From an uncultured Planctomycetaceae bacterium (lineage in GTDB: Bacteria > Planctomycetota > UBA1135 > GCA-002686595), in the NCBI GenBank assembly GCA_964467985.1, contig CAYXTP010000004.1:152874-216873 (forward strand): a stretch of DNA of 64,000 nt, given 5' to 3'. The translations under genes were made by a program, and so were the position numbers. Of this stretch, positions 43,807 to 63,830 are shown one piece after another (the first letter of the stretch is position 1; each line of letters opens with the position of its first letter). The notes under the pieces are model-generated. The model made no database searches. It worked only from the letters and a program-made list of their open reading frames with translations, and was not told the origin of the DNA.

Positions 43807-45531
43807 CTAGGTGCGCATTTCCACCATCCCCTTGAGGGATAGATACAGGCCTAGAATGGCCAGGGCTCCAAGGGCGACGAAGGCGGCCCAGGGTGTGCCC
43901 CCCAGGCGTTGCCGCAGGTCGACCCAAGCCAAGTGACGAAAACCCTCCTGCGCGGGGCGAGAGAGGCTGAGGGGCGCGAGGCCCTGCACTCCGAAGAGCA
44001 CCTGTGCATCGTAGCTTTCGCCCAGACCTGCCGCTCGTTGTCGCACAATACGCCAACGCGCCCAGGGGGCGGCGAAGTCCATTGCCCAATGCAGCGGCTC
44101 CAAATCATCGTTCGCGAGTTCTTCGCCCCCTGCGTTGTTTGAGTCGGACCCAAGACTCGGCTTCGCCTGGAGCGCCAGGTCGAGATGGGTCGCAGTACTG
44201 ACCAAGACTCCGGGCAATTGAATCACTACGCCCAAGACGAACAATCCCATGACCCCTGCGCGGCCCATGGGTCGGCTCTGTGCGTGCCTCAAGCCCAGCG
44301 CCACGGCCAACCAAAGGAAAGGCAGTGCCGGCAGGAGCAGGCGTGGGCCGTAGGTCCAGCCACCGTGCCAGGCCGGGGAGCTTACGGCCGTCAGCAACAT
44401 CCCGCAGAACACGGCTAGCACGACTCGTTCCAGCAAGCGTTCTCCGCGGCGCCGGGCACGGGCCAAGCCGAAGGGCACAATCAGCACGAGAGGCGCCATC
44501 CAGACCAGTCCATGGCCCGGTGAGATCAGGAGTCCAGCGAGCGCAGAAGGCCATGAAGCGAGCGGTGCGAGTCCTTCGGGCCTAGGCGCTGCCCACGATC
44601 CGGTGCGAGTGTGGCCAATCCAACTCAGGACTCCTAGGCCCACGGCCATCGGGAGCAGCAACGCACTCATGAGGGTTCGTCGCGACGGCCCCAGATCCGG
44701 ACCTGGGTCCGACTTCCTGTGATCTGAGCCAACCAGCCCGCGAGTCACGATCACTTCAGTCGCTGCGCACAGGACCAGTACTGCGGGCAGGGTGTCCAGA
44801 CGCGTCAGCCAGGTCAGTGTCAGTGCCAACCCCAGTACGAAGAATTCCCAAGTAGCGGGAGGCTCCAGGCGTGTCAGCCGCGCCCGCACTCGCAGCAGGA
44901 GGTGAAAGGACAGGAACAACAGGAACGTAGCCTGGACATCGGCCAGCCCCGTGCGCGACTGCGACCAGGCGAAGGTCGACAGGCCGTACGAGAAGGCGGC
45001 AAACCATGCATGCGATCGACTGACCCGGAGGCGCCGCGCGGCGAGCACCAGCAAGAACGCCGTGAGGGCCGTGAACAACGGCCCTCTCCAGCACAGCAGC
45101 CAGTGGGCGAAGTACTCAGAAAAGGCCCAATCCGGGTCCTGCGTTTCTTGATGGCGCTGCTCAAGGCGTGGAACCACGGCAGCGATACAGCGTCCAGCCC
45201 AGTAGAACGGCACACCCACCAGGGCCTGTCCAGGGCCGCATTTGGGAAACAGGACCCGATCGCCCGTGCCCACCGATGCCTGAAGAAATCGAGTGCCTGG
45301 AGGAAAGGGGAGGGTCTGTCCCTGTAGCCGCGCAACCTCCTGAGAAGAGGCCAAGGCCCACGTGCCCGTCGTGGCCAATGCCCGAGTGGCCTGGAATTCG
45401 ACCTCACCTCGAGGCCCCTCGGGCAGCCCGCTGAAAGTCAACGTGAACAAGGCCAGCAGCACGCACAACACTCCGCTTGCGAGAACTCGATCTTCTTTGC
45501 GTGCAGGATCCCGGGTGATATAGGGACTCAT
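43807..45531 (-). CDS. Polytopic membrane protein, GT-C-fold glycosyltransferase-like (ArnT/PMT-like); tentative
   Basis: At least 10 hydrophobic segments. The first loop after TM1 carries acidic residues followed by an A..L...G pattern (GEVEFQATRALATTG), resembling the GT-C first-loop motif. Its ATG overlaps the upstream stop as ATGA (plus-strand tcat at 45528-45531). Confidence 0.55.
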   Translation of the reverse strand: MSPYITRDPARKEDRVLASGVLCVLLALFTLTFSGLPEGPRGEVEFQATRALATTGTWALASSQEVARLQGQTLPFPPGTRFLQASVGTGDRVLFPKCGPGQALVGVPFYWAGRCIAAVVPRLEQRHQETQDPDWAFSEYFAHWLLCWRGPLFTALTAFLLVLAARRLRVSRSHAWFAAFSYGLSTFAWSQSRTGLADVQATFLLFLSFHLLLRVRARLTRLEPPATWEFFVLGLALTLTWLTRLDTLPAVLVLCAATEVIVTRGLVGSDHRKSDPGPDLGPSRRTLMSALLLPMAVGLGVLSWIGHTRTGSWAAPRPEGLAPLASWPSALAGLLISPGHGLVWMAPLVLIVPFGLARARRRGERLLERVVLAVFCGMLLTAVSSPAWHGGWTYGPRLLLPALPFLWLAVALGLRHAQSRPMGRAGVMGLFVLGVVIQLPGVLVSTATHLDLALQAKPSLGSDSNNAGGEELANDDLEPLHWAMDFAAPWARWRIVRQRAAGLGESYDAQVLFGVQGLAPLSLSRPAQEGFRHLAWVDLRQRLGGTPWAAFVALGALAILGLYLSLKGMVEMRT

Positions 45532-47609
45532 CGCAGTTTCCGCCCGCCTTGCTCGGGGGACCAACTAAACAGGGCCACGCTGCCGACTCGCAAGCTCTCC
45601 CGCGCTCCCCATCGAACGAGCTCCTTTTCGATGAAGCCCCGGGTCTGCAGACGATCTTGCTCCGTGACGATGAAAATCACCGGGCGGTCCAGACCGACCA
45701 ATTCGCGCATGCGGTTGATCGTCACTCCATCGGTCCGCTTGTACATCGCCTGGGTGGCCTCATGCCGAGCCCTCCAACTGGAAACTCCCAGTGCGACCGC
45801 TTCAAACCGGTCGACCCACAGTGGCATGTCCGCGTAGAGCGTGGCCGGATCGGGCAAGACGGGCCCTTGCGCAGCCTCTTCGACTCTCCGTACAAGAATC
45901 GGACGCAAATCGCGGAGCGGATACTCCTCCCGCAACCAGTGGTAGGCTTGTGCAAGGTGTCGACGTTGCGCGCCCTGGGCGACCCGTTCCTCTTCGCGCG
46001 TTGCCACGACGAGCTTGGGGAGCGTTCCGTCACCAGGGGCCTCGTCAGCGCTCAAGAATGCGGGAGTCACGTGGTGTTTGCCTTCGAGCACCGGCGCAAC
46101 CTCCTGCGCCCAGTCGAGCAACTCTGCAGCCCCATGTGCCTTCGTCCACGCACCACCGCCCAGAGCAAGTAGCGCAAGGGCGACTGAAACTGAACGCCAT
46201 GCGCCACGCCTGTCCCAGGCGCTCACCAGTCCGCCCGCGGCCAGAATGCCGAGCACCAACCCACTGCATCGGCCTAGGGCAATCTCCGACCAAGCGGGCG
46301 CGAAGGCGACGGCCACGAGGGGTACGGCGGCGCAAAGCCATAGCCAGCGCAGTAGAAGCCGTTGGTCTCCAGCTTGGCCAGCGTCCTCACCTCCAAGCCC
46401 CAGGCTCTCGCGCCCAAGAGCGGCGCAAGCGAGCAGCAGCGGTAAGCTCGAGACAACCACAGCCGCCAAGCTACCTGAATCGAGTGCGTTACCCACCTGG
46501 GGACTCGCGGCCAAAGTGAACCGGCTGGCGAGGTAGAGCCCGGGCAGCAAGGCCAGTCCGAGGAAGAGGAGCAGGCGCGTGTGACCGGCTCGCCGCCCAA
46601 TGCCTGCGCCAAGCGCCGTGGCGAGCGCTGCGCAGGCGCCCAGGGGAGGGTGCATGCAGAAGGCAAGCCCGTGGCAAAGCGCGCAGAGCCCCACCCATGG
46701 CCGCATCCCGTGTCGCAAGGCGTGGACAGCGGCCAGCCAGGCGCCGATTGCGAAGAGCAGAGCCGCTGCTCCTCCCCCACCGGGCAGGAAGAGCTTCGTT
46801 TCGACGGGCGTTCCCAATCCCAAGCTGCCTGCGAACACGCCCAGTGCATTCCACCCGACGAGCCCCAAGAAAGAACCCAACAGAGACCGGCGCCACTCCC
46901 CCCACAGCGCCGCGGCCATCAGGTAGAGCATTGTTGGCAGTAAAGCCAAACACCACACGTCAATCAACGCGGCGGCCAGTGTGGGGGCCAGTCGGAGAGC
47001 GCCGGCCACGGTGGCCACGAAAGCCGCCGGTGCCGGGTGGTGCAGCAAGGGACTGCCTGCCAGCCAAGGGTTTTCCAAGCCACCACCACGGAGCAAACTG
47101 CGCGCGACTCCCGCTTGCCAAATGGCGCCGTCTGCCTCAATGCGGATTCCGTTGCCAGCCCCCAACAGCAATGCACTCCAGATGCCGGCCAATGCGAGGG
47201 ATATCCCGAGCGCCCCGATCGCGGCCTTGCCCGCATTCTGTATTCGCAGCTCACCCCGCAGGCCGGTCAGTTGGAGTAGCGCGAGGCACCCCAGGGTCAC
47301 GGGCCAAAGGAGATCCAAGCTCACGAACTGCTGGAGCCCGGCCGCGAGAACACCGACCAGTGGAACGGAAAGCACACTGGAGAACACGAGCAGTTTGAGC
47401 AGTGACGGCTGACCCGGAGTCCACCGCACCAAGATGGGCAGACCGGCACCGCCGAAGACGACAAGTCCGGCCGTCAGCCGTACGACGCTTAGAGGCAGTC
47501 GGTCCAGGTGCCCCAGCGCCGCGAGGCCAGCGCATAGCGCCAGAATCAGTGCCGGCATGGCCATCGAACGGGAAGGTCCAGACTCGTCGGAGGTCATCGG
47601 GACATGCAA
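45528..47609 (-). CDS. Polytopic membrane protein with a soluble C-terminal domain of about 230 aa, function unknown
   Basis: About 450 aa of Ala/Leu/Gly-rich TM segments, then a hydrophilic domain. It is translationally coupled to the downstream membrane protein. The exact start is uncertain (M1, M5 or M16). Confidence 0.55.
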   Translation of the reverse strand: MHVPMTSDESGPSRSMAMPALILALCAGLAALGHLDRLPLSVVRLTAGLVVFGGAGLPILVRWTPGQPSLLKLLVFSSVLSVPLVGVLAAGLQQFVSLDLLWPVTLGCLALLQLTGLRGELRIQNAGKAAIGALGISLALAGIWSALLLGAGNGIRIEADGAIWQAGVARSLLRGGGLENPWLAGSPLLHHPAPAAFVATVAGALRLAPTLAAALIDVWCLALLPTMLYLMAAALWGEWRRSLLGSFLGLVGWNALGVFAGSLGLGTPVETKLFLPGGGGAAALLFAIGAWLAAVHALRHGMRPWVGLCALCHGLAFCMHPPLGACAALATALGAGIGRRAGHTRLLLFLGLALLPGLYLASRFTLAASPQVGNALDSGSLAAVVVSSLPLLLACAALGRESLGLGGEDAGQAGDQRLLLRWLWLCAAVPLVAVAFAPAWSEIALGRCSGLVLGILAAGGLVSAWDRRGAWRSVSVALALLALGGGAWTKAHGAAELLDWAQEVAPVLEGKHHVTPAFLSADEAPGDGTLPKLVVATREEERVAQGAQRRHLAQAYHWLREEYPLRDLRPILVRRVEEAAQGPVLPDPATLYADMPLWVDRFEAVALGVSSWRARHEATQAMYKRTDGVTINRMRELVGLDRPVIFIVTEQDRLQTRGFIEKELVRWGARESLRVGSVALFSWSPEQGGRKLR

Positions 47610-47697
47610 TTGGAACGTCAGTCACGGGTGAAGCGGCATGATCGGGAATGCGTCGGACGATGTCGAGCGAGCACTCGCAGCGACCATCAGGCGCGGC

Positions 47698-49248
47698 TCA
47701 AGGACTCTCGATACCCCATAGCGGGCGCACCCAAAGCTGAAAGACGAGCGTGATCAGCGCTACGGCAAGGAGGTTGATCCAGATCCCCGCGCGCACCATG
47801 GCCGAAATGGGAACGCAGCGGCTCGAGAAAACGACGGCGTTGGGCGGCGTCGCCACGGGCAGCATGAAGGCGGCCGAGGCAGCCATCGTGGCGGGGACCA
47901 TGACGAGTAGTGGGTCCAATCCGGCCGCCACTCCCGCCGAGGCGATGACGGGCAAGAGCACGGCGGTGGTCGCCGTGTTGGAAGTCACCTCGGTCAGCGT
48001 GCTCATGAATAGGGCGATGCCGGGCACGATCCACCAACTGGAAGTGTCGCGCATCAGCGGGGCCAAGCCCGAGCCGAGCAACTCATCGAGCCCGCTCACT
48101 TGAAAGCCTTTGGCCAGACAGAATCCTCCGCCCAGCAGTAACAAGACCTCCCAAGGCAACTTGACCGCCGTTCGCCAGTTCATGAGGAACTTGCCGCGCC
48201 CGACAGGGATTACAAAACAAGCGATGGCCATGAGCGATGCCACCGTGGCATCGGAGATATCGTTCTTGTGCTGAGCGTACCAGCTGGGGTCGTTCGCCTC
48301 TGGCCCCAGGAACAGGCGCGACCAACCACGCATGCTGAGGGCACCGAGCTGCAGATCCGCGCGCGTCACCCACAGCAGCGCCGTACACAGGAACACGCCG
48401 GACATGATCCACTGTGGCCGAGTCACTGGCCCCAGGGCGGCGCGCTCGGCAGAGATGACGTCCGCCTCTCCACTGGCCCCACGCTCGAGGTGAAACACGA
48501 CGCGTGTCAAGATCCACCAGGCGCACGGAACGAACACCACGACGAGTGGTACCCAGCCCAAAAACCACTGGCCAAAACTGATCTTGGGACCGTCCGGAAA
48601 ACGCATTTCGAACTGGCCGAGGAACTCCTGGTTGGGAGCTGTTCCGACTGGGGTGCCCATGCCACCCACCGAGGCCGAATAGGCGACTCCGAGGAGCAGA
48701 CACAGTCCGAACGGAGACGAGGCCATGCGCTCACCCTCGATGCGAGACAACACGGCCACAGCGATGGGCAGCATCAGCAGGGTCGTCGCGGTGTTGTTGA
48801 TCCATAGGGACAGGAAGGCCGCCGCGGCCATGAACCCCAGGACCAAGCTGCGCCGGGAATCGCCCACGCGCGAGATGATCCATAGCGCGATACGGCGGTG
48901 AACACCCCAGCGTTCCAAACCGAGGGCGATGATGAACGCCCCGATGAAAAGCATCACCAGGTCACGCATGTAGACTGGAGCCACATCACGGGCCGGAAGC
49001 ACACCGAGCAGCGGAAAGAGCACGGCGGGCAGCAGTGATGTCGCTCCAATCGGCAGGGCCACTGTGATCCATAGGGTGGCCGTCAGTGCGGTGGTCGCCG
49101 CCACGGCCCGCTGAGCTCCATCCAGCCCAAGTCCAGGCCAGACGAGGAAGAAGGCGAACATTCCCACGCCCAGGCCAAGACCCAGACGCCGGGCGCCTGG
49201 ACTGCCTCGCTCCTCGCCTAGCTGGTCCGTCGAGTGAGGATGACGCAT
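47698..49248 (-). CDS. DASS/SLC13-family anion:sodium symporter
   Basis: Two hairpin SNT motifs (LWINNTATTLLMLPIA and EVTSNTATTAVLLPVI). Polytopic, 516 aa. Confidence 0.85.
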   Translation of the reverse strand: MRHPHSTDQLGEERGSPGARRLGLGLGVGMFAFFLVWPGLGLDGAQRAVAATTALTATLWITVALPIGATSLLPAVLFPLLGVLPARDVAPVYMRDLVMLFIGAFIIALGLERWGVHRRIALWIISRVGDSRRSLVLGFMAAAAFLSLWINNTATTLLMLPIAVAVLSRIEGERMASSPFGLCLLLGVAYSASVGGMGTPVGTAPNQEFLGQFEMRFPDGPKISFGQWFLGWVPLVVVFVPCAWWILTRVVFHLERGASGEADVISAERAALGPVTRPQWIMSGVFLCTALLWVTRADLQLGALSMRGWSRLFLGPEANDPSWYAQHKNDISDATVASLMAIACFVIPVGRGKFLMNWRTAVKLPWEVLLLLGGGFCLAKGFQVSGLDELLGSGLAPLMRDTSSWWIVPGIALFMSTLTEVTSNTATTAVLLPVIASAGVAAGLDPLLVMVPATMAASAAFMLPVATPPNAVVFSSRCVPISAMVRAGIWINLLAVALITLVFQLWVRPLWGIESP

Positions 49249-49257
49249 CGTTGCTAG

Positions 49258-49605
49258 TTACTCTCCAGCCTCAGAATCCGCACCGGTGACTTCGTTTACC
49301 CATTGGGCGTAATGCGACTCCACGTGGGAGGCCGGCAAGGCCACGATTTGGGGGACGTCAAACGGGTGCAAGACGCGCACGCGCTGCTCAAGCTCCGACC
49401 AAGTCTGCTCGCGGGCCTTGAGGATCATGAGCACTTCTGCGGATCGTTCGAGTTGCCCCTGCCACCAGTAGTGGCTGGCAAGGCCGGGGAGAATCTGCAC
49501 GCAGGCAACGAGTCGCTCCTTCAGAAGTGTCTCGGCCATGCTCTGCGCCTGTGCCTCATCGGGTGCAGTCACAAGCACGACCAAGAGGGACATCGCCGAA
49601 TCCAT
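49258..49605 (-). CDS. cutA: Divalent-cation tolerance protein CutA
   Basis: LLVVLVTAPDEAQAQSMAETLLKERLVACVQI...YWWQGQLERSAEVLMILK...HPFDVPQIVALP is the CutA1 fold signature. The start is at MDSAMS (or 49593), and the tracked 191-aa ORF extension is rejected. The gene ends 9 nt before the DASS gene. Confidence 0.8.
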   Translation of the reverse strand: MDSAMSLLVVLVTAPDEAQAQSMAETLLKERLVACVQILPGLASHYWWQGQLERSAEVLMILKAREQTWSELEQRVRVLHPFDVPQIVALPASHVESHYAQWVNEVTGADSEAGE

Positions 49606-49672
49606 GGGCGCAGGATAGCGTCCTTGAGGGCGAGACAACGAGGGCCCCTTCGAACTAGACTGGTCGCTCTCC

Positions 49673-50566
49673 ATGGGAATTCTCCATAGTTGCATCATGG
49701 GCGTCCTGCCCTGGGTCCCGCACACGATCATGCGCCGCCTCTCGGCTCGGTACATCGCCGGGGAGAGTCTGCCTGAGGCCCTGGCAGTCTTGCAGGCCAA
49801 TGCCGCGCGCGGGTTCCCAGGCGTCCTGGACATTCTGGGTGAGGGCGTGGCGGACGAATCGGCCGCGCGTGCGGCATTGGTCGCCTACAAGCGCGATGCC
49901 AGCACCCTGCACGAGGCCGGGCTCGACGCGTATGTCTCGGTCAAACCCACCCACTTCGGCTTGGCCTTGAGCCAGGAACTCGCGTTCGAACTCTACAGCG
50001 ATCTCGCGCAACACTGCCAGGCGCTTGGTCAGACGATGCGCGTGGAAATGGAAGACCACCCCACGACCGATGCGACACTCGAACTGTTCAGGCGCCTGCG
50101 TGCCCAATTCGATCCGGTGGGCATCGTGCTGCAAGCGCGGCTCTTTCGGACACCAGATGACATCGCGGCATTCGACTCCCAGAACGTGGACATCCGCATG
50201 GTGAAGGGCATTTACCTCGAGCCGCCGTCCATCGCGCATTGCGATCGAGCACCGATCCAGGAGGCCTTCATTGAGTGCTGCCGCCAAGCGTGGACCGCCG
50301 GACACCGGGTCGCCTTGGCCACCCATGATGGGGACATGGCTGAGCGCTGCCTGGCCGTGGCTCGAGAACTGCAGGTCCAACCGGACAGGATGGAATTCGA
50401 AGTCCTGCTAGGCGTCCAAGAACCGCTCTGGGATCATTGGCGTCAAGCAGGACATCGCGTGCGCGTCTACGTGCCCTACGGTCCAGAGTGGCGCTCGTAC
50501 TCGGAACGGCGACTGCGCAAGAACCCAGAGATTCTCGGGCACTTGATGCGCAACTTCTTCCGTTAG
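49673..50566 (+). CDS. Proline dehydrogenase family protein
   Basis: ARYIAGESLPEALAVL, LDILGE, VSVKPTHFGL, VRVEMED, GIVLQARL, RMVKGIY and ATHD match monofunctional PRODH. An alternative start lies at 49697. Confidence 0.8.
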   Translation: MGILHSCIMGVLPWVPHTIMRRLSARYIAGESLPEALAVLQANAARGFPGVLDILGEGVADESAARAALVAYKRDASTLHEAGLDAYVSVKPTHFGLALSQELAFELYSDLAQHCQALGQTMRVEMEDHPTTDATLELFRRLRAQFDPVGIVLQARLFRTPDDIAAFDSQNVDIRMVKGIYLEPPSIAHCDRAPIQEAFIECCRQAWTAGHRVALATHDGDMAERCLAVARELQVQPDRMEFEVLLGVQEPLWDHWRQAGHRVRVYVPYGPEWRSYSERRLRKNPEILGHLMRNFFR

Positions 50567-52660: not shown

Positions 52661-55600
52661 TCAGTCGGGAACCACGCGCACGCGCAAGTTGGTCACCCCG
52701 GCTACATCTGCCAGCACGTCGCCAGGAACATCTGCCCCCTGTGACGTCCCGTCAAAAATGATCGCGAAGCGGATCATGTTGGGAGTCGTGGAGAAGTTGT
52801 TGAACATGTCGGGATGATCCACCCAGGGGGTGACGGAGGCCGGGTCGATTCCGGCGAACAGATCATTGACGTCCCCGTTGCACAGGTCCGTGGTTCCATC
52901 CGTACGCGCTCCCTGGAAGCGAATCACTACGGGAGCTGCGGTGACCGATCCGCCCTGTGTGCCCAGACTGATTCCGAATTCATTCTCCCATGAGTTGCTC
53001 AATAGGCCGTTTGCACCACGGAACGGAATCGTGACCTCCGGCCCACCACCCGGGGTGTACAGGATATCCATATTCCAGCCCATCTTGTCCGGATCGCCGG
53101 TGTTGTCATCCTCTTCGTCAGAGACGAAGAACAGCGAGAAGAACGTGCCGGATGGTTGCAGCCAGCAGGACATGGAAGCCGAGATCGAATCCGGGCGGTG
53201 AGTCGTGGCCGACCATCCGGGCCCGTCGAGAGCGTTCTGACCGTTGTCCACGCTGATCCATGAAAGGGAATCATCAACGGGGTCATAGGGCAGGACGGAT
53301 GAAGCGATGAGTGAGCGCGAGACTCCTCCAGCGACGTCCTCGACGCGCAGGAGTCCGGGACTGCCGGCTCCACCCTGGGAGAGGCTCCATACACCGGCAC
53401 CACCCAGGCCGCCGCTAATGTCGATGGTGCCCGCTAGGGACGCGATGTCGACCACCATGCTCTGCAGCTTGATGGCCCCACCGGATCCCCCCCCACCGGG
53501 AGTTGCGAACTGAGTGAAGTCCACTGTCCACGTGCTCGCGTCACACATGAAGTTGCTTAGAGCGGCACGCGCTTGGCCGCCCTGACCACCAACGGCCTTG
53601 ATCTGGCCATCCACGGCCAGGCGCTTGCCCGCGGTGAGCTGCAGGGCACCGCCACCGCCGCCGCCCATGGCGCCTGAGTGATCGTGCCAGGCCTTGAAGA
53701 AGTTGTTGACGCTGATGCAGCCGATGTCGAGCCCGAGGGGATCCCACGCAAAGGAGCCGTGCGGGTGGTTGCCTCCCCCTCCACCGCCCGAGCCGCCGCG
53801 CAGGAACCCGTCCCACCAATTGAGCAGGCGTTGGCTGTAGCCCACGTTGTCCTCCGCGGGAGCTTCGATGCCGATGGTGGAACTGTCCCCCCCGGGTGTG
53901 TCGGGCGCACCGTTGTCCTGACCTGCGGGAGCGAGAGCGGTTGAGAGGGTCGAATCCGAGGTTCCGATTCCACCATCCAGAGAGTAAGCCCCTCCTGATC
54001 CCACACCGCCGACCATCATGCTACGGCACTCCAGGTTGGAATCGTTCGCGTTGTAGGTATTCACCCGGTTGAAGCCGAGCCCCTGGCTGTTGTTGTCCGC
54101 TGTGGTGTTGGTGTTCACGATGGGGTAGTTCGTCGGGTATTGGACTCCGCCAACCCCGCTGCCCAAACCGACAGAGCGTCCCACACCCATGCCTGCCCGG
54201 CCTTGGGTGTTGGCGCCGAAGTTCGCGATCACGTCGTTTTCGCAGAGCCCCAGGGCCGCCATGGCAGCATTCACGCTCATGTCAAATCGGTCACCGCCAA
54301 AGCCTCCGTCGGCACCCCCAGCAGGAGCCACGGGCACGCTCAGTTGGGTTTCAGGGTCCACGATGCTTGAGTCATGATCTGCAGGCTGCACTCCGCTCAG
54401 GTCCAGAATAGATCCCGAACCAATATTGGCGAAACCCCGCACGTACAAGCGCGCGGGCTGTGATCCGATCAACACCAGCTTGGAACCCGAATCCAACGTC
54501 AGCGACTGGAATTCAAAAGCACCATCCGTGACCGTGATCGAATCAGGGTAGTTGCCCAAGGTGCTGGGAAAGTTCACCGCATCCGCATTGCCGAGGAGGT
54601 CCGGAAGCAAGTCAAGGGCCAAGCCATCCACAATCCCGAGGGGGAAGTTCTGCGAATCGGTGTTCAAGACGAGGGTCTGCCCGCCCTGCACACGCAGATC
54701 TCCCAGTCGACCCGAACCACCACCCACTCCGCGGGTCAAGCGGCCGCCGCCCCAGAAGGCTCCGCTGCGTTGGCCGTCCTCGTTTGAATTCGGGTCCGGC
54801 CACGAAAGCAGGAAATCCTCTCCCCCGTCCGGTACGAGAACCTCGCCCAACTGAGGCAGTTCGGTGATGAAGGAGTGGGTCCCTCCGCCTACGCCGATCG
54901 GATTCGCGACAAGGTCCTGAACGGCCGGCGGCAGGGTCAGCACAATGCGGCGAGGATTGAGGGGCGCGTTGGGACCCGCCGAGGGCAAAGGCACATCGGT
55001 CACAAACAGCAACGTGGTCGTGAGCTGTGCGAGATCCACTGAAAACGAGAATCGCCCCGAGATGGGTGTGCGATCCGGAGTCGCCAAGTCTCCGTCCTCA
55101 TCCACGTCCACGGCGATAGACGGGGAGGCGCCAGTGGAAGGATTCAGAAGAGTGGCGACGTTCATCACATCGTCGAACTCGAAGCGGATCGCGGTTTGAC
55201 GGTAGACGTCGTCGAGCTCAGTGCCCCCGTTGAGCAAGACGTCGGAGACAACGATTGGCGTTCCGTCAGCCTCGTAGCCCACGACCTGATCCACAAACAT
55301 CTGGGCGGACGGCCGCCCGGGCACCGGGTCGATCACACCCTCAGTGGTCTTGATTGTGCACTGCATGCGGCTCTTGTTCCTGATGCCTAGCGTGCTCTGG
55401 ATGAAGGGCCCGAAGTCCGACTGGGCCAGGCCGGGCAGAAAGATCCTGTAGGAGGTCGAGGAGGCAAATCCATGGATCGGCGTGCCGTTCTGATCAAAGG
55501 TCAATGACGGTCGAAAGATCAGGCGGCGCGGGTTCGTAGGGTCGGTAAAGAATTGCCCCGAAGGGGTCGTTCCGTTGGCCACGTCCGTCACCCTGAAGGA

Positions 55601-55846
55601 GCTGGAGTTGACGCTGAACAGGTCAAAGGGCTCCGAGAAGATGATCGAAATCTCCTGGTTCTGATACGTGTTGGCGATGGCGCAATTGACCTCGTTGCTC
55701 GTCACGCCATCTGTGCAACCCAGGGTGCACGAGACGATATAGAAACTGCCTTCGGAGGGAGTGGTGCCACTCTCAGTGGAACAGCCCGACAACAGGGCGA
55801 GGGCCGAGAGAGAGAGGGCGACAGGAGAGATGCGCGGCGTCCACAT
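52661..55846 (-). CDS. Giant lipoprotein A (1,061 aa): N-terminal Ig-like (SbsA/Big_5-like) domains plus a glycine-block region; family unknown
   Basis: Lipobox LLSGC. Ig-like segment NQEISIIFSEPFDLFSVNSSSFRVTDV...RLIFRPS. There are multiple conserved poly-Gly blocks. It is a collinear paralogue of 56231-59440. Confidence 0.85.
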   Translation of the reverse strand: MWTPRISPVALSLSALALLSGCSTESGTTPSEGSFYIVSCTLGCTDGVTSNEVNCAIANTYQNQEISIIFSEPFDLFSVNSSSFRVTDVANGTTPSGQFFTDPTNPRRLIFRPSLTFDQNGTPIHGFASSTSYRIFLPGLAQSDFGPFIQSTLGIRNKSRMQCTIKTTEGVIDPVPGRPSAQMFVDQVVGYEADGTPIVVSDVLLNGGTELDDVYRQTAIRFEFDDVMNVATLLNPSTGASPSIAVDVDEDGDLATPDRTPISGRFSFSVDLAQLTTTLLFVTDVPLPSAGPNAPLNPRRIVLTLPPAVQDLVANPIGVGGGTHSFITELPQLGEVLVPDGGEDFLLSWPDPNSNEDGQRSGAFWGGGRLTRGVGGGSGRLGDLRVQGGQTLVLNTDSQNFPLGIVDGLALDLLPDLLGNADAVNFPSTLGNYPDSITVTDGAFEFQSLTLDSGSKLVLIGSQPARLYVRGFANIGSGSILDLSGVQPADHDSSIVDPETQLSVPVAPAGGADGGFGGDRFDMSVNAAMAALGLCENDVIANFGANTQGRAGMGVGRSVGLGSGVGGVQYPTNYPIVNTNTTADNNSQGLGFNRVNTYNANDSNLECRSMMVGGVGSGGAYSLDGGIGTSDSTLSTALAPAGQDNGAPDTPGGDSSTIGIEAPAEDNVGYSQRLLNWWDGFLRGGSGGGGGGNHPHGSFAWDPLGLDIGCISVNNFFKAWHDHSGAMGGGGGGALQLTAGKRLAVDGQIKAVGGQGGQARAALSNFMCDASTWTVDFTQFATPGGGGSGGAIKLQSMVVDIASLAGTIDISGGLGGAGVWSLSQGGAGSPGLLRVEDVAGGVSRSLIASSVLPYDPVDDSLSWISVDNGQNALDGPGWSATTHRPDSISASMSCWLQPSGTFFSLFFVSDEEDDNTGDPDKMGWNMDILYTPGGGPEVTIPFRGANGLLSNSWENEFGISLGTQGGSVTAAPVVIRFQGARTDGTTDLCNGDVNDLFAGIDPASVTPWVDHPDMFNNFSTTPNMIRFAIIFDGTSQGADVPGDVLADVAGVTNLRVRVVPD

Positions 55847-56120
55847 GGGTCAAACGTCGTTGATTGGGGGACAGGGAAACGGAGCAATTCGCGGCCACGA
55901 TCCTACAGCAAGCACGCCACTTGCACTCCCACCCAACCAGGCTTCTTGGGTGTAATTGCGAAGGCCTGCCCTGGCCCATCGCCAGCCCCGCCCTCTGGCA
56001 GAGCCGGAGTGTCTGGCGCGGCAGAGCGCAGCGGTGTAGCCCCGATCTTGCACCTCCCCCAAGGTGGCAAGCGAGTCAGCACGCCAACACCTTACCCAAG
56101 ATGCAGCACGCCCGAGCCCC

Positions 56121-56161
56121 GCGCGGGACGCGCCTGGTGGGTCCAGCGCGGGACGCGCCTG
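56121..56161. repeat. 16-nt direct repeat GCGCGGGACGCGCCTG x2 (25-bp period) in the spacer between the two giant lipoprotein genes
   Basis: Read directly: copies at 56121-56136 and 56146-56161. Each copy contains the mini-palindrome GCGCG-GGA-CGCGC. Confidence 0.8.
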
Positions 56162-56230
56162 CTAGCACCTGGTCCCGGCCATGTGCAAGGCGGGCCTCGG
56201 CCGAGCTACAGGAACTCCGATTGTGGCCGG

Positions 56231-59200
56231 CTAGTCCGGAAGTACTCGCACCCAGAAATTGTCGATCCCATCCACTTGATCCAGAATCGTGCGCGGGGAA
56301 TCACCGGGCTGGCGCGTGTTGTCGAACACGATCACAAAGCGCATCAGGTTGGGCGGCGGCTGGAACGAATTCAGTAGCGCCGGGTGATCTACCCAAGGGG
56401 TGACCGAACCGGGCACGATAGACGTGGTCGGGTCGTTCAGGTCGAGATTGCAGTAGTCTTCCACCCCGGTCGTGCGTGCGCCCTGGAAGCGAACCACGAT
56501 GGGAGCCGCCGCTAGGGTTCCGCCTTCCGTGCCCAGGGTCTTCCCGAATGTGTTTTCCCAGGATTGCATGAAGAAGCCGTTGCTGCCCCTGAAAGGAATG
56601 GTCACTTGGGGTTGCCCCACCGGACGATACAACAGGTCCATGTTCCAGCCCATCTGGGCGGCGCTGCCTGTGTCTGAATCGGCTTCATCCTGCACGAAGA
56701 ACATGGAGAAGACCGAACTCGATGGCGTCAGCCAACAAGAAGAGGAAGCGCTGATCGCATCCGGACGATGATTCGAAAGAACCCACCCGGGGCCATCAAG
56801 GGGGTTCTGACCGTCGTCGACACTGAGCCAAGACAACGAGTTGTCGCTCGGATCAAAGGGCAAGACGGATGGAGCCGCTAGTGCACGGCTCAGACCAGCG
56901 AGGTCCTCAATCCGAACCAGTCCAGCACCGCCAGCACCGCCAAGGGAGTTGGCCCAGCTCTTGGCCGTTCCACCAATGCCTCCTGACACGTCAATCGTTC
57001 CGGGGTTGGGCGAAAGGTCGACCACAATGCTTTGCAGCTTCACGGCGCCTCCCGAACCACCACCACCGGGGGTCGCGAACTTGCCGTAGTCCACGCTGCA
57101 GAACGGCGGTGGAATGGGGTTGCGCGGCTCGCCGCCCCGACTTCCGCTCGCGTCAATCGAACCGTCCAAAGTGATGCGCTTCCCAGAAGTCAAGTGCAGG
57201 GCACCGCCACCGAAGCCGCCGCGTGCTCCTGAGTGATCCACCCAGGCGTGGAAGTTGGAAAGAGGCCCTACGCACGCATCTAGTTTCGTGCCGTTGTGCC
57301 CATCGGCCCAGGTTCCAAACGGGTGGCCGCCGCCCCCGCCCCCGCCTGATCCACCGCGCAGGTCACCCTTGAACCAGCGTAGCTGGCGACTGTCGTAGCC
57401 CGCGTTGTCCTCCGCAGGAGCCTCAAGCCCCACTTCGGAGGGGTCGCCGCCAGGGGTGTCGGCGGCATTGTTGGTCACGCCAGGAAAGTCCGATGTCGGG
57501 AAGACCGAGGAAGCCACGCCCACGCCGCCCGCGGTCGCATACGAACCGCCCGAACCTGAACCGCCCACCATCATGCTGCGGCACTGAGTGTCGAGAGTGA
57601 TCGGATCGAAGAGGGTGCTTACGTTGAACCCAACCTCCTGCGAACCGGTTGTCAACGTGTCGAGGATTGGATACCGGGTGGGGTACTTGTCCCCGCCCAA
57701 TCCGGCTCCGGCCGAGCCGACACGGCCCACGCCCATGCCCTTGTAGCCGGAGGTGTGGGGTGCGACCACAAGCACAGGGTCGTTCTCACAAGCAAGCAGA
57801 CTCACCATGGGCGAGTTGACCGACATGTCAAAGCGCGAACCACCGAAACCTCCGTCTCCTCCACCGGCCGCGTTGACGGGGGTGCCCAACTGCGCGAGCG
57901 GGTCCAGAATTGTGGAGTCGTGATCGGCCGGGATCGCCCCAGAAAGATCAATCACTGCGCCGGCCTGAATATCAATGGGACCACGCACGTAGACGCGAGC
58001 CGGGTTCAGGCCCTCAAAACGAATGGAACCGCCAGGGGCAACGACCAGTGAGTTGAATTCAAAGACTCCGTCCGTGACGGTAATTGTGTCGGGGAAGTTG
58101 CCGAGAGTGTTCGGAAAGCCGACGGGATCCGGGTTACCTAGTAGGTCGGCGACCTGATCGAGCAGGAACCCATCCGTTGTGGTCAACGGGAAAGTCTGGC
58201 CGTCAGTGTTCAGCACAAGTGTCAGGCCCGCGGGAACGAACAGGTCACCTAGTCGTCCGGAGCCTCCGCCGATGCCGGGCGCCAACCGACCGCCGCCCCA
58301 GAATGCGCCGCCACGATTGCCGTCCTCGTTGGATCCTGCAGAAGGATAGGAAACGGTGAAGTCCTCTCCGCCGGGCGGCAGAAGCGATTCTTGCAGCAAT
58401 GAAATCTCAGGGATGAACGAACGCTGCCCGCCGCCGCTCGTCACCGAATTGGACACCAGATCCTGCACGTTGGCCGGAATCGTCAGCACGATGCGACGTG
58501 AGGATGTTGGCGCGTTGGGACCCGCTGAAGGCAGGGGCAAGGAAGCATCGAAATACAGGAAGGTCTCCAGACGATCGAAGTCGACCCCAAAGCTGAAATC
58601 CCCATCCACGTCGTAACGGTCTAGGGTCGCCAGGTCTCCGTCGTCGTCCACCTCGATGGTGATGTAGGGCGCATTCTTGCTCGCGGGGTCCAGCAGGGTC
58701 GCCACGTTCATCACATCGTCAAAGAAGAAGGTGATACGCGTTTGGCGCCAGACATCTTCGATCTCGGGGGTCGATGTGACGACCACGTCGTAGTCGAACT
58801 GATTGGCGTTTCCGTTGGCGTCGTAGCCCGTGACAACATCTACCGTGGTGACAGCTGTCGGGGCGCCGGGCACGGGATCGATGATGCCCAGGCTCGTGCG
58901 AATGGTGCACTCCATCCGCGATTGGTTGACCTGACCGGACGTGCTCTGAATGAAGGGGCCGAATTCGTCCTGCGCCTTGCCCGGAATACTGATCGCGTAA
59001 GAGGCGTCCTGCTTCAGACCGAAGATCGGGTTGCCGTTCTGATCAAAAGACAGAGAGGGTCTAAAAATCAGCCGCTTGGGGTTGGTGGGATCCCCAAAAA
59101 ACTGTCCGGGGGGCGACGTGCCGTTGGCGACATCTACAACCTGGAAGGTGCTTGAGTTCACCGAGAAGAGATCGACAGGTGCTGAGAACAACAGGGCGAT

Positions 59201-59440
59201 TTCCTGGTTTTGAAATGTGTCGATGATCGAACAAGTGATCTTGTTCCCGGGCGCCCCGTTCGTGCAACCCAGCGTGCAGGTCTCCACGTAGAAGGCGCCG
59301 CCATTGGAACTGCTGCTGCCGGAGCAGCCAGCTAGGCCCAGGGCCCCGATGAAGGCCCCCGCCGCGAGGGCCTTCTGAACGGTCGTCCGCGGGGATTTCT
59401 GCAGGCCGAAGGCCCGGGTGGTGGTGCGCTCAGTTCGCAT
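56231..59440 (-). CDS. Giant lipoprotein B (1,069 aa), paralogue of 52661-55846
   Basis: Lipobox GLAGC. Same domain order, same glycine blocks, and the same 10 Cys positions as lipoprotein A. Confidence 0.85.
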   Translation of the reverse strand: MRTERTTTRAFGLQKSPRTTVQKALAAGAFIGALGLAGCSGSSSSNGGAFYVETCTLGCTNGAPGNKITCSIIDTFQNQEIALLFSAPVDLFSVNSSTFQVVDVANGTSPPGQFFGDPTNPKRLIFRPSLSFDQNGNPIFGLKQDASYAISIPGKAQDEFGPFIQSTSGQVNQSRMECTIRTSLGIIDPVPGAPTAVTTVDVVTGYDANGNANQFDYDVVVTSTPEIEDVWRQTRITFFFDDVMNVATLLDPASKNAPYITIEVDDDGDLATLDRYDVDGDFSFGVDFDRLETFLYFDASLPLPSAGPNAPTSSRRIVLTIPANVQDLVSNSVTSGGGQRSFIPEISLLQESLLPPGGEDFTVSYPSAGSNEDGNRGGAFWGGGRLAPGIGGGSGRLGDLFVPAGLTLVLNTDGQTFPLTTTDGFLLDQVADLLGNPDPVGFPNTLGNFPDTITVTDGVFEFNSLVVAPGGSIRFEGLNPARVYVRGPIDIQAGAVIDLSGAIPADHDSTILDPLAQLGTPVNAAGGGDGGFGGSRFDMSVNSPMVSLLACENDPVLVVAPHTSGYKGMGVGRVGSAGAGLGGDKYPTRYPILDTLTTGSQEVGFNVSTLFDPITLDTQCRSMMVGGSGSGGSYATAGGVGVASSVFPTSDFPGVTNNAADTPGGDPSEVGLEAPAEDNAGYDSRQLRWFKGDLRGGSGGGGGGGHPFGTWADGHNGTKLDACVGPLSNFHAWVDHSGARGGFGGGALHLTSGKRITLDGSIDASGSRGGEPRNPIPPPFCSVDYGKFATPGGGGSGGAVKLQSIVVDLSPNPGTIDVSGGIGGTAKSWANSLGGAGGAGLVRIEDLAGLSRALAAPSVLPFDPSDNSLSWLSVDDGQNPLDGPGWVLSNHRPDAISASSSCWLTPSSSVFSMFFVQDEADSDTGSAAQMGWNMDLLYRPVGQPQVTIPFRGSNGFFMQSWENTFGKTLGTEGGTLAAAPIVVRFQGARTTGVEDYCNLDLNDPTTSIVPGSVTPWVDHPALLNSFQPPPNLMRFVIVFDNTRQPGDSPRTILDQVDGIDNFWVRVLPD

Positions 59441-59732: not shown

Positions 59733-60719
59733 ATGCTCCCCGCTGATACCCATCCCGAGCCCGCCAAGGGGTCCCTATTCAACTTCGCCCTCGCTTGCCT
59801 CGGCTGGGCCCTGGTCCTGCTCCCCTCAACAGGTTGCGCCCCGGCAGACCCCGCCGAGGCGGGAGATTCGAGCTCACAGGACCCTGTGGCCTCCGTCGGT
59901 TCGCCGGGAGTCGGCGGTGTGCAACGAGACTCGGCGGGCATCCCCCTTTCCGCGGAGATCAGCGAGGCGGTACGCGCAGAGATCAAGGCTTTTGTAGACG
60001 CGATGATTCCACCACCTATCGAAGCGACCAGCGACCTGCACGACGACTGGCTGCAGGAGACCCGCGCCCTGCGCAAGCAGCTGGAGACCCGCGAGGAAGA
60101 AATCGGAAACGCGGCCCTGCACGCGTTCACGGGTGAAGTCAGCGATCGGACGGTGACGCGCAATGCCTTGCTGACGATCGGTGCGCGTTGCTCACCTCAG
60201 GCCGCCGCACCCCTGCTGCGCGAGTTGATGGTGACCTACGGCTACCGCTACGACGACCGCACCTCGGCTGCGGTGCTGTTGGCTGAAGTCGATCCGGAAA
60301 TGTACATGACAGCGGCCGTGGATCACCTGCGCCGGCGGAAGCGAGCCTCGAAGACGATGCCACCGGACGAATTCCTGATCCGAGGCTGGGTCACCGCCTG
60401 CGAGACTGCGGGCAAGTCTCCGGTCGACATGTTGGCGGATGTGGCCACCAACCTGATCATCGATCCGCCCGCCCGCTACGCAGCCGCCGAGGCGCTGGGC
60501 AGGTACCCTGACGTCAATCTGGGTCGTGAGGCTCTCAAGGCTTGCCTGGTGGAATCCACGGGTGACGCTTATTTGAGACGCAAGGCGGCCCAGGCCATCC
60601 GGGCCTCCTTCAACGCCGAGGAAGCCTGCTCGCTGTTCTCCTATGTCCTTACCCGGGAAGTGGATGCAACTTTTGCCATGTTCCTGGACGACATGTTGCA
60701 GCACCTCGGTTGTAAGTAA
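59733..60719 (+). CDS. Lipoprotein with a HEAT/ARM-like helical-repeat region, function unknown
   Basis: Internal ATG giving MLPADTHPEPAKGSLFNFALACLGWALVLLPSTGC (signal plus lipobox-like). Helical repeats include ARYAAAEALGRYPD and LRRKAAQAIRASF. The tracked 105-aa N-terminal extension is Arg/Gly/Trp-rich and is rejected. Confidence 0.55.
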   Translation: MLPADTHPEPAKGSLFNFALACLGWALVLLPSTGCAPADPAEAGDSSSQDPVASVGSPGVGGVQRDSAGIPLSAEISEAVRAEIKAFVDAMIPPPIEATSDLHDDWLQETRALRKQLETREEEIGNAALHAFTGEVSDRTVTRNALLTIGARCSPQAAAPLLRELMVTYGYRYDDRTSAAVLLAEVDPEMYMTAAVDHLRRRKRASKTMPPDEFLIRGWVTACETAGKSPVDMLADVATNLIIDPPARYAAAEALGRYPDVNLGREALKACLVESTGDAYLRRKAAQAIRASFNAEEACSLFSYVLTREVDATFAMFLDDMLQHLGCK

Positions 60720-62600: not shown

Positions 62601-63830
62601 CTACTTACCAACTTGGCCGGCCATGTCCAGAATCGGGATGAAAATGGACAGCACGACGGTGCCGACAACAAATCCCATGACGCAGATCAGCAGGGGTTCA
62701 ATCAAGGAAGTCAGTGCTTTGACCTGGGCCTTGACCTGAGCGTCGTAGAACTCAGAGATCTTCTCCAATAGCGCCTCGAGGGCACCCGTGCGTTCTCCGA
62801 TCGCAATCATGCGCACGACCATGGGAGGGAACACCGGCTCGTTAGAGAGCGGTTCCGAAAGCAGGTTGCCGTTACGCACACTCTCACGCGACTTGGTTAC
62901 GGCTCGCTCCACGACCCCGTTGCCCGCCGTGTTCCCGACGATGTCCAGGGTGGACATGATCGGTACGCCCGAACGAATGAGAGTCGAGAAGGTGCGACTA
63001 AAGCGCGCCAAGCAGACTTTTTTCATCAGCGGTCCGAAGACGGGCACCTTGAGGATCGCGCGGTCCCACAGGAGCGAGCCCCGCGGGGTACGCTTGAACA
63101 TGACAAGCAGACTGGTCAACACGGCCCCGCCCGCAATGAACATGAGTACGTTTTCGCGCAGGGTGTTCGAAAGGTTCAAGACGAACTCTGTAATAGCCGG
63201 CAGCTCCGAGCCCATGGACTCGAACACTCCCTTGAACGTGGGGACAACACCCATCATCAAGAACGCCGTAATCGCCACAACGAGAATCATGGAAATGACC
63301 GGATAGGTCATGGCCAACTTGATTTCGCGGCTAAGTGCCTCGGATTCTTCCTGGTAGTCGGCCAGCCGGGCGAGGATGACGTCCATCTGCCCGGACACTT
63401 CCCCCGCCTTGACCATGTTGATGTACAGGTGGGAGAACACCTTGGGGCAGTTCTCCATGGAATTCGACAAGTCGGAGCCGGCTCGCAGATCGGCCACCAT
63501 GCTCTCACAGCAGGCCTTCATGCCGGGGGACTCGGCCTGGTGACCCAGCACCTCGAGCGATTCAAGCAACGAGAGCCCCGCACCGACCATGGTGGACAGC
63601 TGGCGCGTAAAGATCACCAATTCACCCTTGCGGGCTGTCTTCTTGACCTTACCCCCACCTAGGCTCCAGCGCGCACTGCGCCCGGCTCCCTTGCCCGACT
63701 CACTGAGGCTCAACAGAACGAGATTCTTGCTGCGCAACTGGGCCAGAGCGTCGGCCTTGGTGGTAGCACTGATCGTGCCCTCTAGGTGTTTGCCCTCGGG
63801 ACTCTTGGCTGCGTACTTGAAGTGGTTCAC
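62601..63830 (-). CDS. Type II secretion / type IV pilus platform protein, GspF/PilC family
   Basis: Two T2SSF repeats (FTRQLSTMVGAGLSLLESLEVL and FSRTFSTLIRSGVPIMSTLDIV), three TM segments, 409 aa. Confidence 0.9.
   Translation of the reverse strand: MNHFKYAAKSPEGKHLEGTISATTKADALAQLRSKNLVLLSLSESGKGAGRSARWSLGGGKVKKTARKGELVIFTRQLSTMVGAGLSLLESLEVLGHQAESPGMKACCESMVADLRAGSDLSNSMENCPKVFSHLYINMVKAGEVSGQMDVILARLADYQEESEALSREIKLAMTYPVISMILVVAITAFLMMGVVPTFKGVFESMGSELPAITEFVLNLSNTLRENVLMFIAGGAVLTSLLVMFKRTPRGSLLWDRAILKVPVFGPLMKKVCLARFSRTFSTLIRSGVPIMSTLDIVGNTAGNGVVERAVTKSRESVRNGNLLSEPLSNEPVFPPMVVRMIAIGERTGALEALLEKISEFYDAQVKAQVKALTSLIEPLLICVMGFVVGTVVLSIFIPILDMAGQVGK

Follow-up and report, generated by a model that had tools for sequence, protein, structure and literature searches.

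Paralogous planctomycete lipoproteins that combine an Ig-like stalk with a large head domain lacking known relatives

In a 64,000-nucleotide stretch of contig CAYXTP010000004.1 from an uncultured Planctomycetaceae bacterium (hereafter the window, by which we mean the whole stretch), two neighbouring genes, which we call A and B, encode members of a sizeable, clade-restricted family of envelope lipoproteins in which a stalk of a known, immunoglobulin (Ig)-like type is joined to a head without known relative. A word-indexed search returned 77 relatives, all of them from Planctomycetota or unclassified metagenome-assembled genomes (MAGs) and all named either 'hypothetical' or 'Ig-like domain-containing'. 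An exhaustive HMMER search with a profile of the head only, counted in representatives of clusters at 50% identity, found 799 representatives at E<=1e-3, 404 at E<=1e-10 and at least 173 at E<=1e-30, and the top 150 matches all have the same architecture or are fragments of it. Likewise, a scan of GTDB species genomes yielded 41 loci, again confined to Planctomycetota or unclassified MAGs, among which one organism is cultured, namely Rohdeia mirabilis Pla163 (orthologue Pla163_28530; QDU85720.1, WP_145189590.1, A0A518D2L5). Rohdeia is a member of the 'Saltatorellus' clade, whose planctomycetes are shapeshifting (10.1101/817700). A distant set of lipoproteins of ~850-1010 aa, 24-28% identical, shares the same architecture. 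Our literature search found no description of such a family, and a homology search with a superfamily profile gave 25 matches, all of the same architecture and none with an informative name.

Shared architecture of the two lipoproteins

The sequence-only reading of this region had described two same-strand genes for proteins of 1,061 and 1,069 aa that are collinear paralogues alignable to their final residues, and our open reading frame (ORF) coordinates, lengths and alignment all agree with this description (Table 1). The two genes comprise 6396 bp of coding sequence, and BLASTP of A against B gives 599 identities over 1031 positions (58%) with 13 gaps and E = 0, in an alignment that runs collinearly from residue 34 of A and residue 49 of B to the last residue of each (...NLRVRVVPD and ...NFWVRVLPD). 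Because identity is spread evenly over the domains, at 53-64% by region and 53-62% within the heads, we see no sign of recent gene conversion. Ten public contigs carry a protein identical to the product of gene A, and the exact gene B protein is contained in public metagenome assemblies.

Both proteins start with a putative lipoprotein signal, as had been noted from the motifs LLSGC and GLAGC. The signal ends, ...ALALLSGC in A and ...GALGLAGC in B, fit the lipobox criterion [LVI][ASTVI][GAS]-C, and the long N-region of B recurs in its orthologue P0009, which has an LASC lipobox. In A, a Ser/Gly/Thr tether (aa 23-33) directly follows the lipobox. Across the family alignment the lipobox Cys is at least 90% conserved, and nearly all members with an intact N-terminus combine it with a Ser/Gly-rich tether. 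In addition, the claim that ten further Cys stand at matching positions after the anchor Cys proved correct, as all ten align column by column (A: 40, 44, 55, 163, 535, 607, 710, 768, 894, 989; B: 55, 59, 70, 178, 551, 620, 723, 781, 902, 997). Eight of these ten are kept in at least 86% of the core family (76 sequences); the remaining pair, Cys 535 and 768 of A, is present in only ~8% of it, which suggests one extra disulfide in this lineage. Judged from sequence, both proteins are predicted to be lipidated and disulfide-bonded. They are also strongly acidic, with 111 D+E against 48-59 K+R, and the core family has a median acidic excess of about 61.

The first ~300 aa had been likened to SbsA/Big_5-like Ig modules, and both profile and structure searches support this assignment. 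Big_5 (PF13205) matches the two proteins just below its Pfam gathering threshold of 23.6 bits, in A at aa 59-121 (E 6e-4, 20.8 bits) and in B at aa 77-158 (E 1.3e-3, 19.9 bits), and a precomputed PF13205 match exists on many homologues. Moreover, a Foldseek search with the full gene A model, which matches in its stalk part only, retrieves the Ig-like domains of LdtMt5 and LdtMt2 and the surface-layer (S-layer) protein SbsC at E 8e-6 to 4e-4. By analogy with such proteins, the Ig-like domains probably act as a stalk. The first of them (Ig1, A 34-172) is the best-conserved region of the family, at 64% between A and B, in line with the 55-65% that had been estimated by eye for the first ~150 residues, and at 58-64% to distant members; its four-Cys motif, SC.LGC...C...C, is invariant even in ~25%-identical relatives. 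The second domain (Ig2) contains an acidic loop, D249-x-D251-G252-[D/N]-x4-D258 (window ~55073-55102), that is kept in 74 of the 76 core sequences, and in a distant clade (loci L034-L044) a conserved Cys replaces the acidic motif in the same loop. This loop may be a Ca2+ site that was swapped for a possible disulfide in the distant clade.

The head domain and the search for its relatives

The part of each protein beyond the stalk, by our count ~730 aa, had been said to match no known family, and this description held in searches of Pfam, NCBIfam, PADLOC and the PDB. Pfam and NCBIfam scans of full-length A and B returned only the sub-threshold Big_5 matches, and PADLOC anti-phage models gave zero matches to either protein at E<=1. 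Pfam at E<=10 on 12 diverse head sequences gave no match, and PDB sequences searched with phmmer and with a family profile yielded only synthetic GGSGG linkers. Foldseek of the head against the PDB found nothing at E<=1e-3 (best E 0.078, prob 0.07), and the weak tail of that search consists of jelly-roll and beta-helix proteins, none of them significant.

The head is nevertheless confidently predicted. We built the AlphaFold2 model of gene A on a 59-sequence alignment and read out DSSP strings and the predicted local distance difference test (pLDDT). The full model has a mean pLDDT of 89.7 and a predicted template modelling score (pTM) of 0.76, with values below 50 only in residues 1-32 (signal peptide and tether), and the head modelled alone (335-1061) reaches a pLDDT of 93.2 and a pTM of 0.92, which argues for one compact unit. 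Much of the head is neither helix nor strand according to DSSP, yet has a pLDDT >95, and these parts coincide with eleven Gly-rich motifs conserved family-wide, for example GGSGGGGGGNHP, MGGGGGGALQL and PGGGGSGGAIKL; Gly makes up 20% of the head. By eye, a unit consisting of a Gly run, a long strand and GG.GG is repeated at aa ~727-757 and ~783-816, and since two of the Gly motifs head this repeated unit, a short solenoid is suggested. The C-terminal part of the head is beta-sandwich-like in the model.

Along the head, entropy switches between 1.2-1.4 in conserved Gly blocks and 2.6-3.0 in variable ones, the hypervariable blocks being at aa 520-540, 580-600, 700-720 and 760-780, and insertions of up to 53-65 aa occur at two hot spots, 398-430 and 494-506. 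The core family has several polar motifs in the head, namely WHDHSG (aa 720-725), which is highly conserved within it, LVRIED, RFQGAR and TPWVDHP; only WHDHSG, RFQGAR and TPWVDHP have a catalytic look. The invariants of the superfamily are almost all Gly, Cys, Pro or aromatic residues. Given that ~70% of a ~110-kDa protein, whose gene keeps its position throughout a deep planctomycete lineage, has no Pfam, NCBIfam or PDB relative yet is predicted with very high confidence, the head is a good target for structure determination and for the definition of a new domain family.

Table 1. Positions in the window of the two lipoprotein genes, their parts and the neighbouring genes
Feature	Position	Strand	Basis
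Gene A, 1061-aa lipoprotein paralogue, downstream copy	52661-55846	-	ORF
Gene A signal peptide and lipobox, aa 1-22 (LLSGC, Cys22)	55781-55846	-	sequence
Gene A Cys-knot and Ig-like domain 1, aa 34-172 (Cys 40, 44, 55, 163)	55331-55747	-	Big_5, Foldseek
Gene A Ig-like domain 2, aa 173-334	54845-55330	-	all-beta in model
Gene A head, aa 335-1061 (727 residues)	52664-54844	-	AlphaFold2 model
Spacer between gene B and gene A, 384 bp	55847-56230	-	between ORFs
Gene B, 1069-aa lipoprotein paralogue, upstream copy	56231-59440	-	ORF; 58% identity with gene A
Gene B signal peptide and lipobox, aa 1-39 (GLAGC, Cys39)	59324-59440	-	sequence
Gene B Ig-like stalk, aa 49-350	58391-59296	-	Big_5; collinear with gene A
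Gene B head, aa 351-1069	56234-58390	-	58% identity with gene A head
HEAT_2-like protein, ~326 aa, divergent from gene B	59739-60719	+	HEAT_2 E 9.6e-6, just under Pfam cut-off
PilA/GspG-like prepilin, 248 aa	61589-62335	-	
PilC	62601-63830	-	
Conserved protein, about 574-585 aa, hydrophobic N-terminal stretch	43807-45564	-	weak sub-threshold PMT/LA_3751-type glycosyltransferase similarity
Conserved protein, 678-693 aa, hydrophobic N-terminal stretch	45528-47609	-	no family match

Duplication history and genomic setting

Copy number, counted within +/-10 kb of each locus, differs across the family. Many loci hold a single copy (L005, L009-L019), and a tandem pair is found at L001, L004, L007, L021 and L032 and, among distant relatives, at L034, L035, L037 and L041. 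In a crude neighbour-joining tree of 82 sequences and 921 columns, the orthologues that are 78-79% identical to gene A fall together with it, P0009 falls with gene B, and these two groups are sisters inside a larger clade; P0024/P0026 and L032_1/L032_2 are mutual closest relatives within each pair, and the pairs of L007/L021 and of L034/L035 derive from further separate events. By this tree, tandem duplication has recurred at least four or five times, and the A/B duplication is lineage-specific but, going by the 58% identity of its copies, old. In at least one related MAG, both copies also lie side by side, on one 18.8-kb contig (P0003 and P0022, OSB57_06865/06870). In addition, the MAG Bpl_4, which holds the canonical tandem pair (L004), has a third copy, P0025 (1047 aa), off the canonical locus on contig JAAELL010000108.1 (L050, equal to L009), where its neighbours are a pyrroloquinoline quinone (PQQ) beta-propeller protein, a Ser/Thr protein kinase and an extracytoplasmic function (ECF) sigma factor.

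These results bear on the earlier suggestion that an old duplication kept in tandem hints at a heteromeric function. The age of the duplication and the retention of both copies stand, the latter in a related MAG, but a single ancient event does not, as the pairs arose independently. Since many genomes are single-copy at the same locus and the other pairs result from independent duplications, an obligate heteromer is not supported, and pairing is better described as a recurrent option than as a defining feature of the family. The spacer that separates the two genes has no terminator-like site in a consensus scan of its 384 bp, signals in the promoter and terminator scan were at background level, and Rfam, tRNA and tandem-repeat scans gave nothing relevant. 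The same spacer contains a 16-nt direct repeat, CAGGCGCGTCCCGCGC, in two copies ~30 nt apart (window ~56108-56153), which may be a regulatory site or a chance occurrence in GC-rich DNA.

The lipoprotein gene occupies the same locus in nearly all of roughly 40 related loci. On its upstream side, the conserved block consists of pilT, pilB, pilC and a pilin gene (+), TatD (-), the HEAT-like gene (-) and then one or two copies of the lipoprotein gene (+); on its downstream side follow an amidohydrolase (+), (DHH) (+), a metallophosphoesterase (+), ProDH (-), CutA (+) and a Na/sulfate symporter (+). Using tblastn on all fetched loci, we recovered the block, wholly or for the most part, in almost all loci that are long enough to judge, distant relatives included. 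It had been considered that the homologues might be common singletons with no conserved neighbourhood: singletons they often are, but the neighbourhood is strongly conserved. Across loci the flanking proteins share 30-77% identity, whereas the lipoprotein shares 25-47%, and the fixed locus together with this lower identity marks the lipoprotein as a positional orthologue with a higher rate of evolution than the proteins around it. Because the flanking genes are of ordinary cytoplasmic types (an amidohydrolase like TRZ/ATZ or aminofutalosine deaminase, a YfcE-like phosphodiesterase, ProDH, CutA), synteny alone assigns no function to the lipoprotein.

The most constant immediate neighbour is the HEAT-like gene, which lies on the opposite strand directly upstream in nearly all core loci that reach it. 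Its start codon is ambiguous, as the ORF extends to 59418 while the product annotated by the Joint Genome Institute (JGI) has 277 aa. Of the four homologues whose N-terminus is complete, three have a hydrophobic stretch that ends in Cys, which suggests that the protein may be exported, and it may be a partner of the lipoprotein and, with some uncertainty, an exported lipoprotein itself. Further out, related contigs (L001, L004, L005, L007, L051) continue past PilC with PilB (MshEN+T2SSE) and a 354-aa PilT-like ATPase, and the pil genes in the window appear to be the PilB+PilT cluster of the Saltatorellota preprint (10.1101/817700). On the other side, downstream of the lipoprotein pair, the two conserved proteins with hydrophobic N-terminal stretches listed in Table 1 belong to the same syntenic block; should the glycosyltransferase similarity of the first be real, it would be noteworthy to have such an enzyme facing the periplasm close to an envelope lipoprotein rich in Ser/Thr. 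Relative to most other parts of the window, positions 46001-50000 have an unusually high AT skew (0.28 and 0.16, taken over 2 kb each).

Possible functions and comparison with known systems

From the lipobox, the even number of Cys, the stalk, the rigid head, the variable blocks and the lost polar motifs, we infer, as a tentative proposal that falls somewhat short of an even chance, that these lipoproteins present a non-enzymatic binding or structural head that is lipid-anchored outside the cytoplasm, at the envelope and probably at the cell surface. The lipoprotein signal peptide would provide an N-terminal lipid anchor in the membrane, from which a short Ser/Gly tether would lead to two Big_5-type Ig-like domains serving as a stalk, the first locked by its four-Cys knot and the second carrying the acidic loop that may bind Ca2+. 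In the 727-residue head, the eleven Gly-rich motifs would form a rigid scaffold, braced by conserved Cys, that displays the hypervariable, insertion-prone segments, and these variable loops would bind something at the envelope or cell surface, the candidate ligands being matrix or polysaccharide, other cells or other components of the envelope. Ligands that change, or that are more than one, would then account for the fast divergence and the repeated tandem duplication. A location at the cell surface is plausible for A and B, and a periplasmic one is also possible. Several considerations weigh against this proposal. A near-universal single-copy core gene suits a housekeeping role in the envelope at least as well as an adhesin, and the conserved synteny may reflect slow genome rearrangement instead of a shared function. 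Moreover, WHDHSG is highly conserved in the core family, which is compatible with an enzyme there even without a universal catalytic motif, and to our knowledge it is not understood how Planctomycetota sort lipoproteins to their surface.

Alternatively, the proteins could be structural components that the clade's unusual, plastic envelope needs, and not ligand-binding adhesins, either as a coat resembling an S-layer or as a spacer or tether between the outer membrane and the peptidoglycan or matrix, which we consider unlikely. Such a role would suit a gene that is near-universal, fixed in position and mostly single-copy in the clade, and a stalk that resembles both the S-layer domains of SbsC and the peptidoglycan-proximal Ig-like domains of LdtMt2. 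The proteins are also strongly acidic, as are many S-layer proteins. However, Pfam and NCBIfam scans detect no surface-layer homology (SLH) or other wall-binding module, ten Cys are unusual for an S-layer protein, and hypervariable loops in a repeatedly duplicated gene would be more typical of a protein that faces changing ligands. Cultured members of the clade have features in line with a structural role, namely an outer membrane that is fragile, a changing shape and aggregates rich in matrix (10.1101/817700). The same preprint reports apparent cell fusion.

We regard it as improbable that the lipoproteins are extracytoplasmic enzymes, acting for example on polysaccharide, peptidoglycan or protein, in which the head would be a new catalytic fold positioned by the Ig-like domains. 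The retention of WHDHSG, LVRIED, RFQGAR and TPWVDHP in the core family is consistent with this, as is the fact that the best stalk match, LdtMt2, is an enzyme with Ig-like spacers, and the head has a faint Foldseek likeness to phage tailspike or depolymerase beta-helices and to jelly-roll glycosidases and carbohydrate-binding modules (E 0.07-3, not significant). On the other hand, the head has no enzyme-family profile match at E<=10 and no PDB match. WHDHSG, RFQGAR, TPWVDHP and the other polar motifs are gone in ~25%-identical relatives that keep both the architecture and the locus, so that we rejected them as a conserved catalytic motif, and most of the invariants are Gly, Cys, Pro and aromatic residues.

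That the lipoprotein is functionally tied to the neighbouring type IV pilus (PilT-PilB-PilC-pilin), either as a surface protein exported by the pilus machinery or as a pilus-associated adhesin or anchor, has a slimmer chance still. At almost every locus, distant relatives included, two genes separate the lipoprotein gene from the upstream pil genes, which share its orientation, and the pilin is PilA/GspG-like. Surface lipoproteins of about the size of A and B that depend on a type II secretion system (T2SS) are known, for example PulA. However, two opposite-strand genes (TatD and the HEAT-like gene) lie in between, the same block contains clearly unrelated housekeeping genes, and the third copy in one MAG resides in a quite different context. 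There is also no similarity to a PilY1/PilC-type tip adhesin or a minor pilin in Pfam and NCBIfam (PF05567 and von Willebrand factor A, vWA, included), and Foldseek finds no propeller. The clade itself is unusual among planctomycetes in having a type IV pilus system with both PilB and PilT (10.1101/817700), which would fit such a tie.

Finally, it is a long shot that the head is a new fold that arose only in Saltatorellus-type planctomycetes, possibly a hybrid of ordered polyglycine, a short beta-solenoid and a beta-sandwich, and that it is their principal cell-surface recognition module. In that case the tissue-like aggregation of these bacteria, and perhaps the reported fusion of their cells, would depend on contacts between cells or with the matrix that the head mediates, and tandem paralogues such as A and B would give different specificities or act together. 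More generally, a clade-specific, fast-evolving, lipid-anchored envelope protein is a reasonable candidate player in the envelope biology of the clade. The orthologue in a culturable strain, Pla163_28530 of Rohdeia mirabilis, makes the family experimentally testable; should these proteins turn out to be ordinary envelope lipoproteins, our analysis would serve only to annotate a large family whose members are now called hypothetical.

Several known classes of surface protein were considered and rejected. For autotransporters and chlamydial Pmp proteins, there is no Pfam or NCBIfam match, only two GGA[LI] motifs are present, and the C-terminus is soluble, beta-sandwich-like and part of the head. 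For repeats-in-toxin (RTX) adhesins of type I secretion systems (T1SS), there is no Pfam match, and the proteins have an N-terminal Sec/lipoprotein signal instead. For the C-terminal domains (CTD) of type IX secretion systems (T9SS) and for PEP-CTERM proteins, NCBIfam and Pfam give no match, and the conserved C-terminal end (...VRVVPD) belongs to the head.

The only fold-search matches of the gene A head with E<=1e-3 came from predicted viral structures (BFVD), with 10 matches, a best E of 1.9e-11 and 400-780 aligned columns. The matched proteins, which are Gly-rich or 'collagen-like' and uncharacterised, belong to prasinoviruses, Orpheovirus, Pandoravirus and uncultured phages; one example is A0A7S6NY19, a Bathycoccus virus protein named 'PA14 domain-containing'. 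Their TM-scores are 0.14-0.37 and their root-mean-square deviations (rmsd) 8-28 A, and given such low TM-scores and high rmsd, the E-values may partly reflect shared Gly-rich local structure. We therefore treat the likeness as a weak fold resemblance that is possibly driven by composition. A viral link of the head was also sought by tblastn against 50,697 phage records and by a scan of IMG/VR contigs, neither of which gave a sequence relative.

Proteins with polyglycine II (PGII) helices, that is the 'PGII sandwich' of phage gp38 and the Gly-rich domain of ALK/LTK (PF12810), are similar to the A head in pattern only. In gp38, conserved Gly runs alternate with hypervariable segments (PMC3157838, PMC12032242), and in the A head Gly runs likewise alternate with hypervariable segments, beta-strands directly follow the Gly runs, and long stretches without helix or strand are modelled at very high confidence; the head is, however, several times larger than the PGII domains of gp38 or ALK/LTK. 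The gp38 PGII sandwich is not among the 50 Foldseek PDB matches listed for the head. For ALK/LTK, there is no Pfam match at E<=10 in 12 family members and hhalign gives a probability of 4%; its chains are in the PDB library, yet the family-profile search missed them, and they are absent from the 50 Foldseek matches listed. On these grounds we rejected the head as a member of the ALK/LTK domain family.

Klebsiella PulA, which is exported by a T2SS, offers an analogy from general knowledge: like A and B, it is a ~110-kDa lipoprotein whose gene lies near a cluster for an ATPase, a platform protein and a pilin. A and B differ from it in that they have neither sequence nor fold similarity to it and no enzyme domain, and the system near A and B looks like a type IVa pilus (PilB plus PilT) and not a T2SS. 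Closest in architecture to the N-terminal part are the Big_5/SbsA-SbsC surface proteins and the spacers of LdtMt2 and LdtMt5, which share with A and B two Ig-like beta-sandwich domains. In contrast to these proteins, the Ig-like part is only ~30% of A and B, which are without an SLH or S-layer anchoring module and without a YkuD catalytic domain, and their first Ig domain bears a four-Cys knot that is specific to this family.

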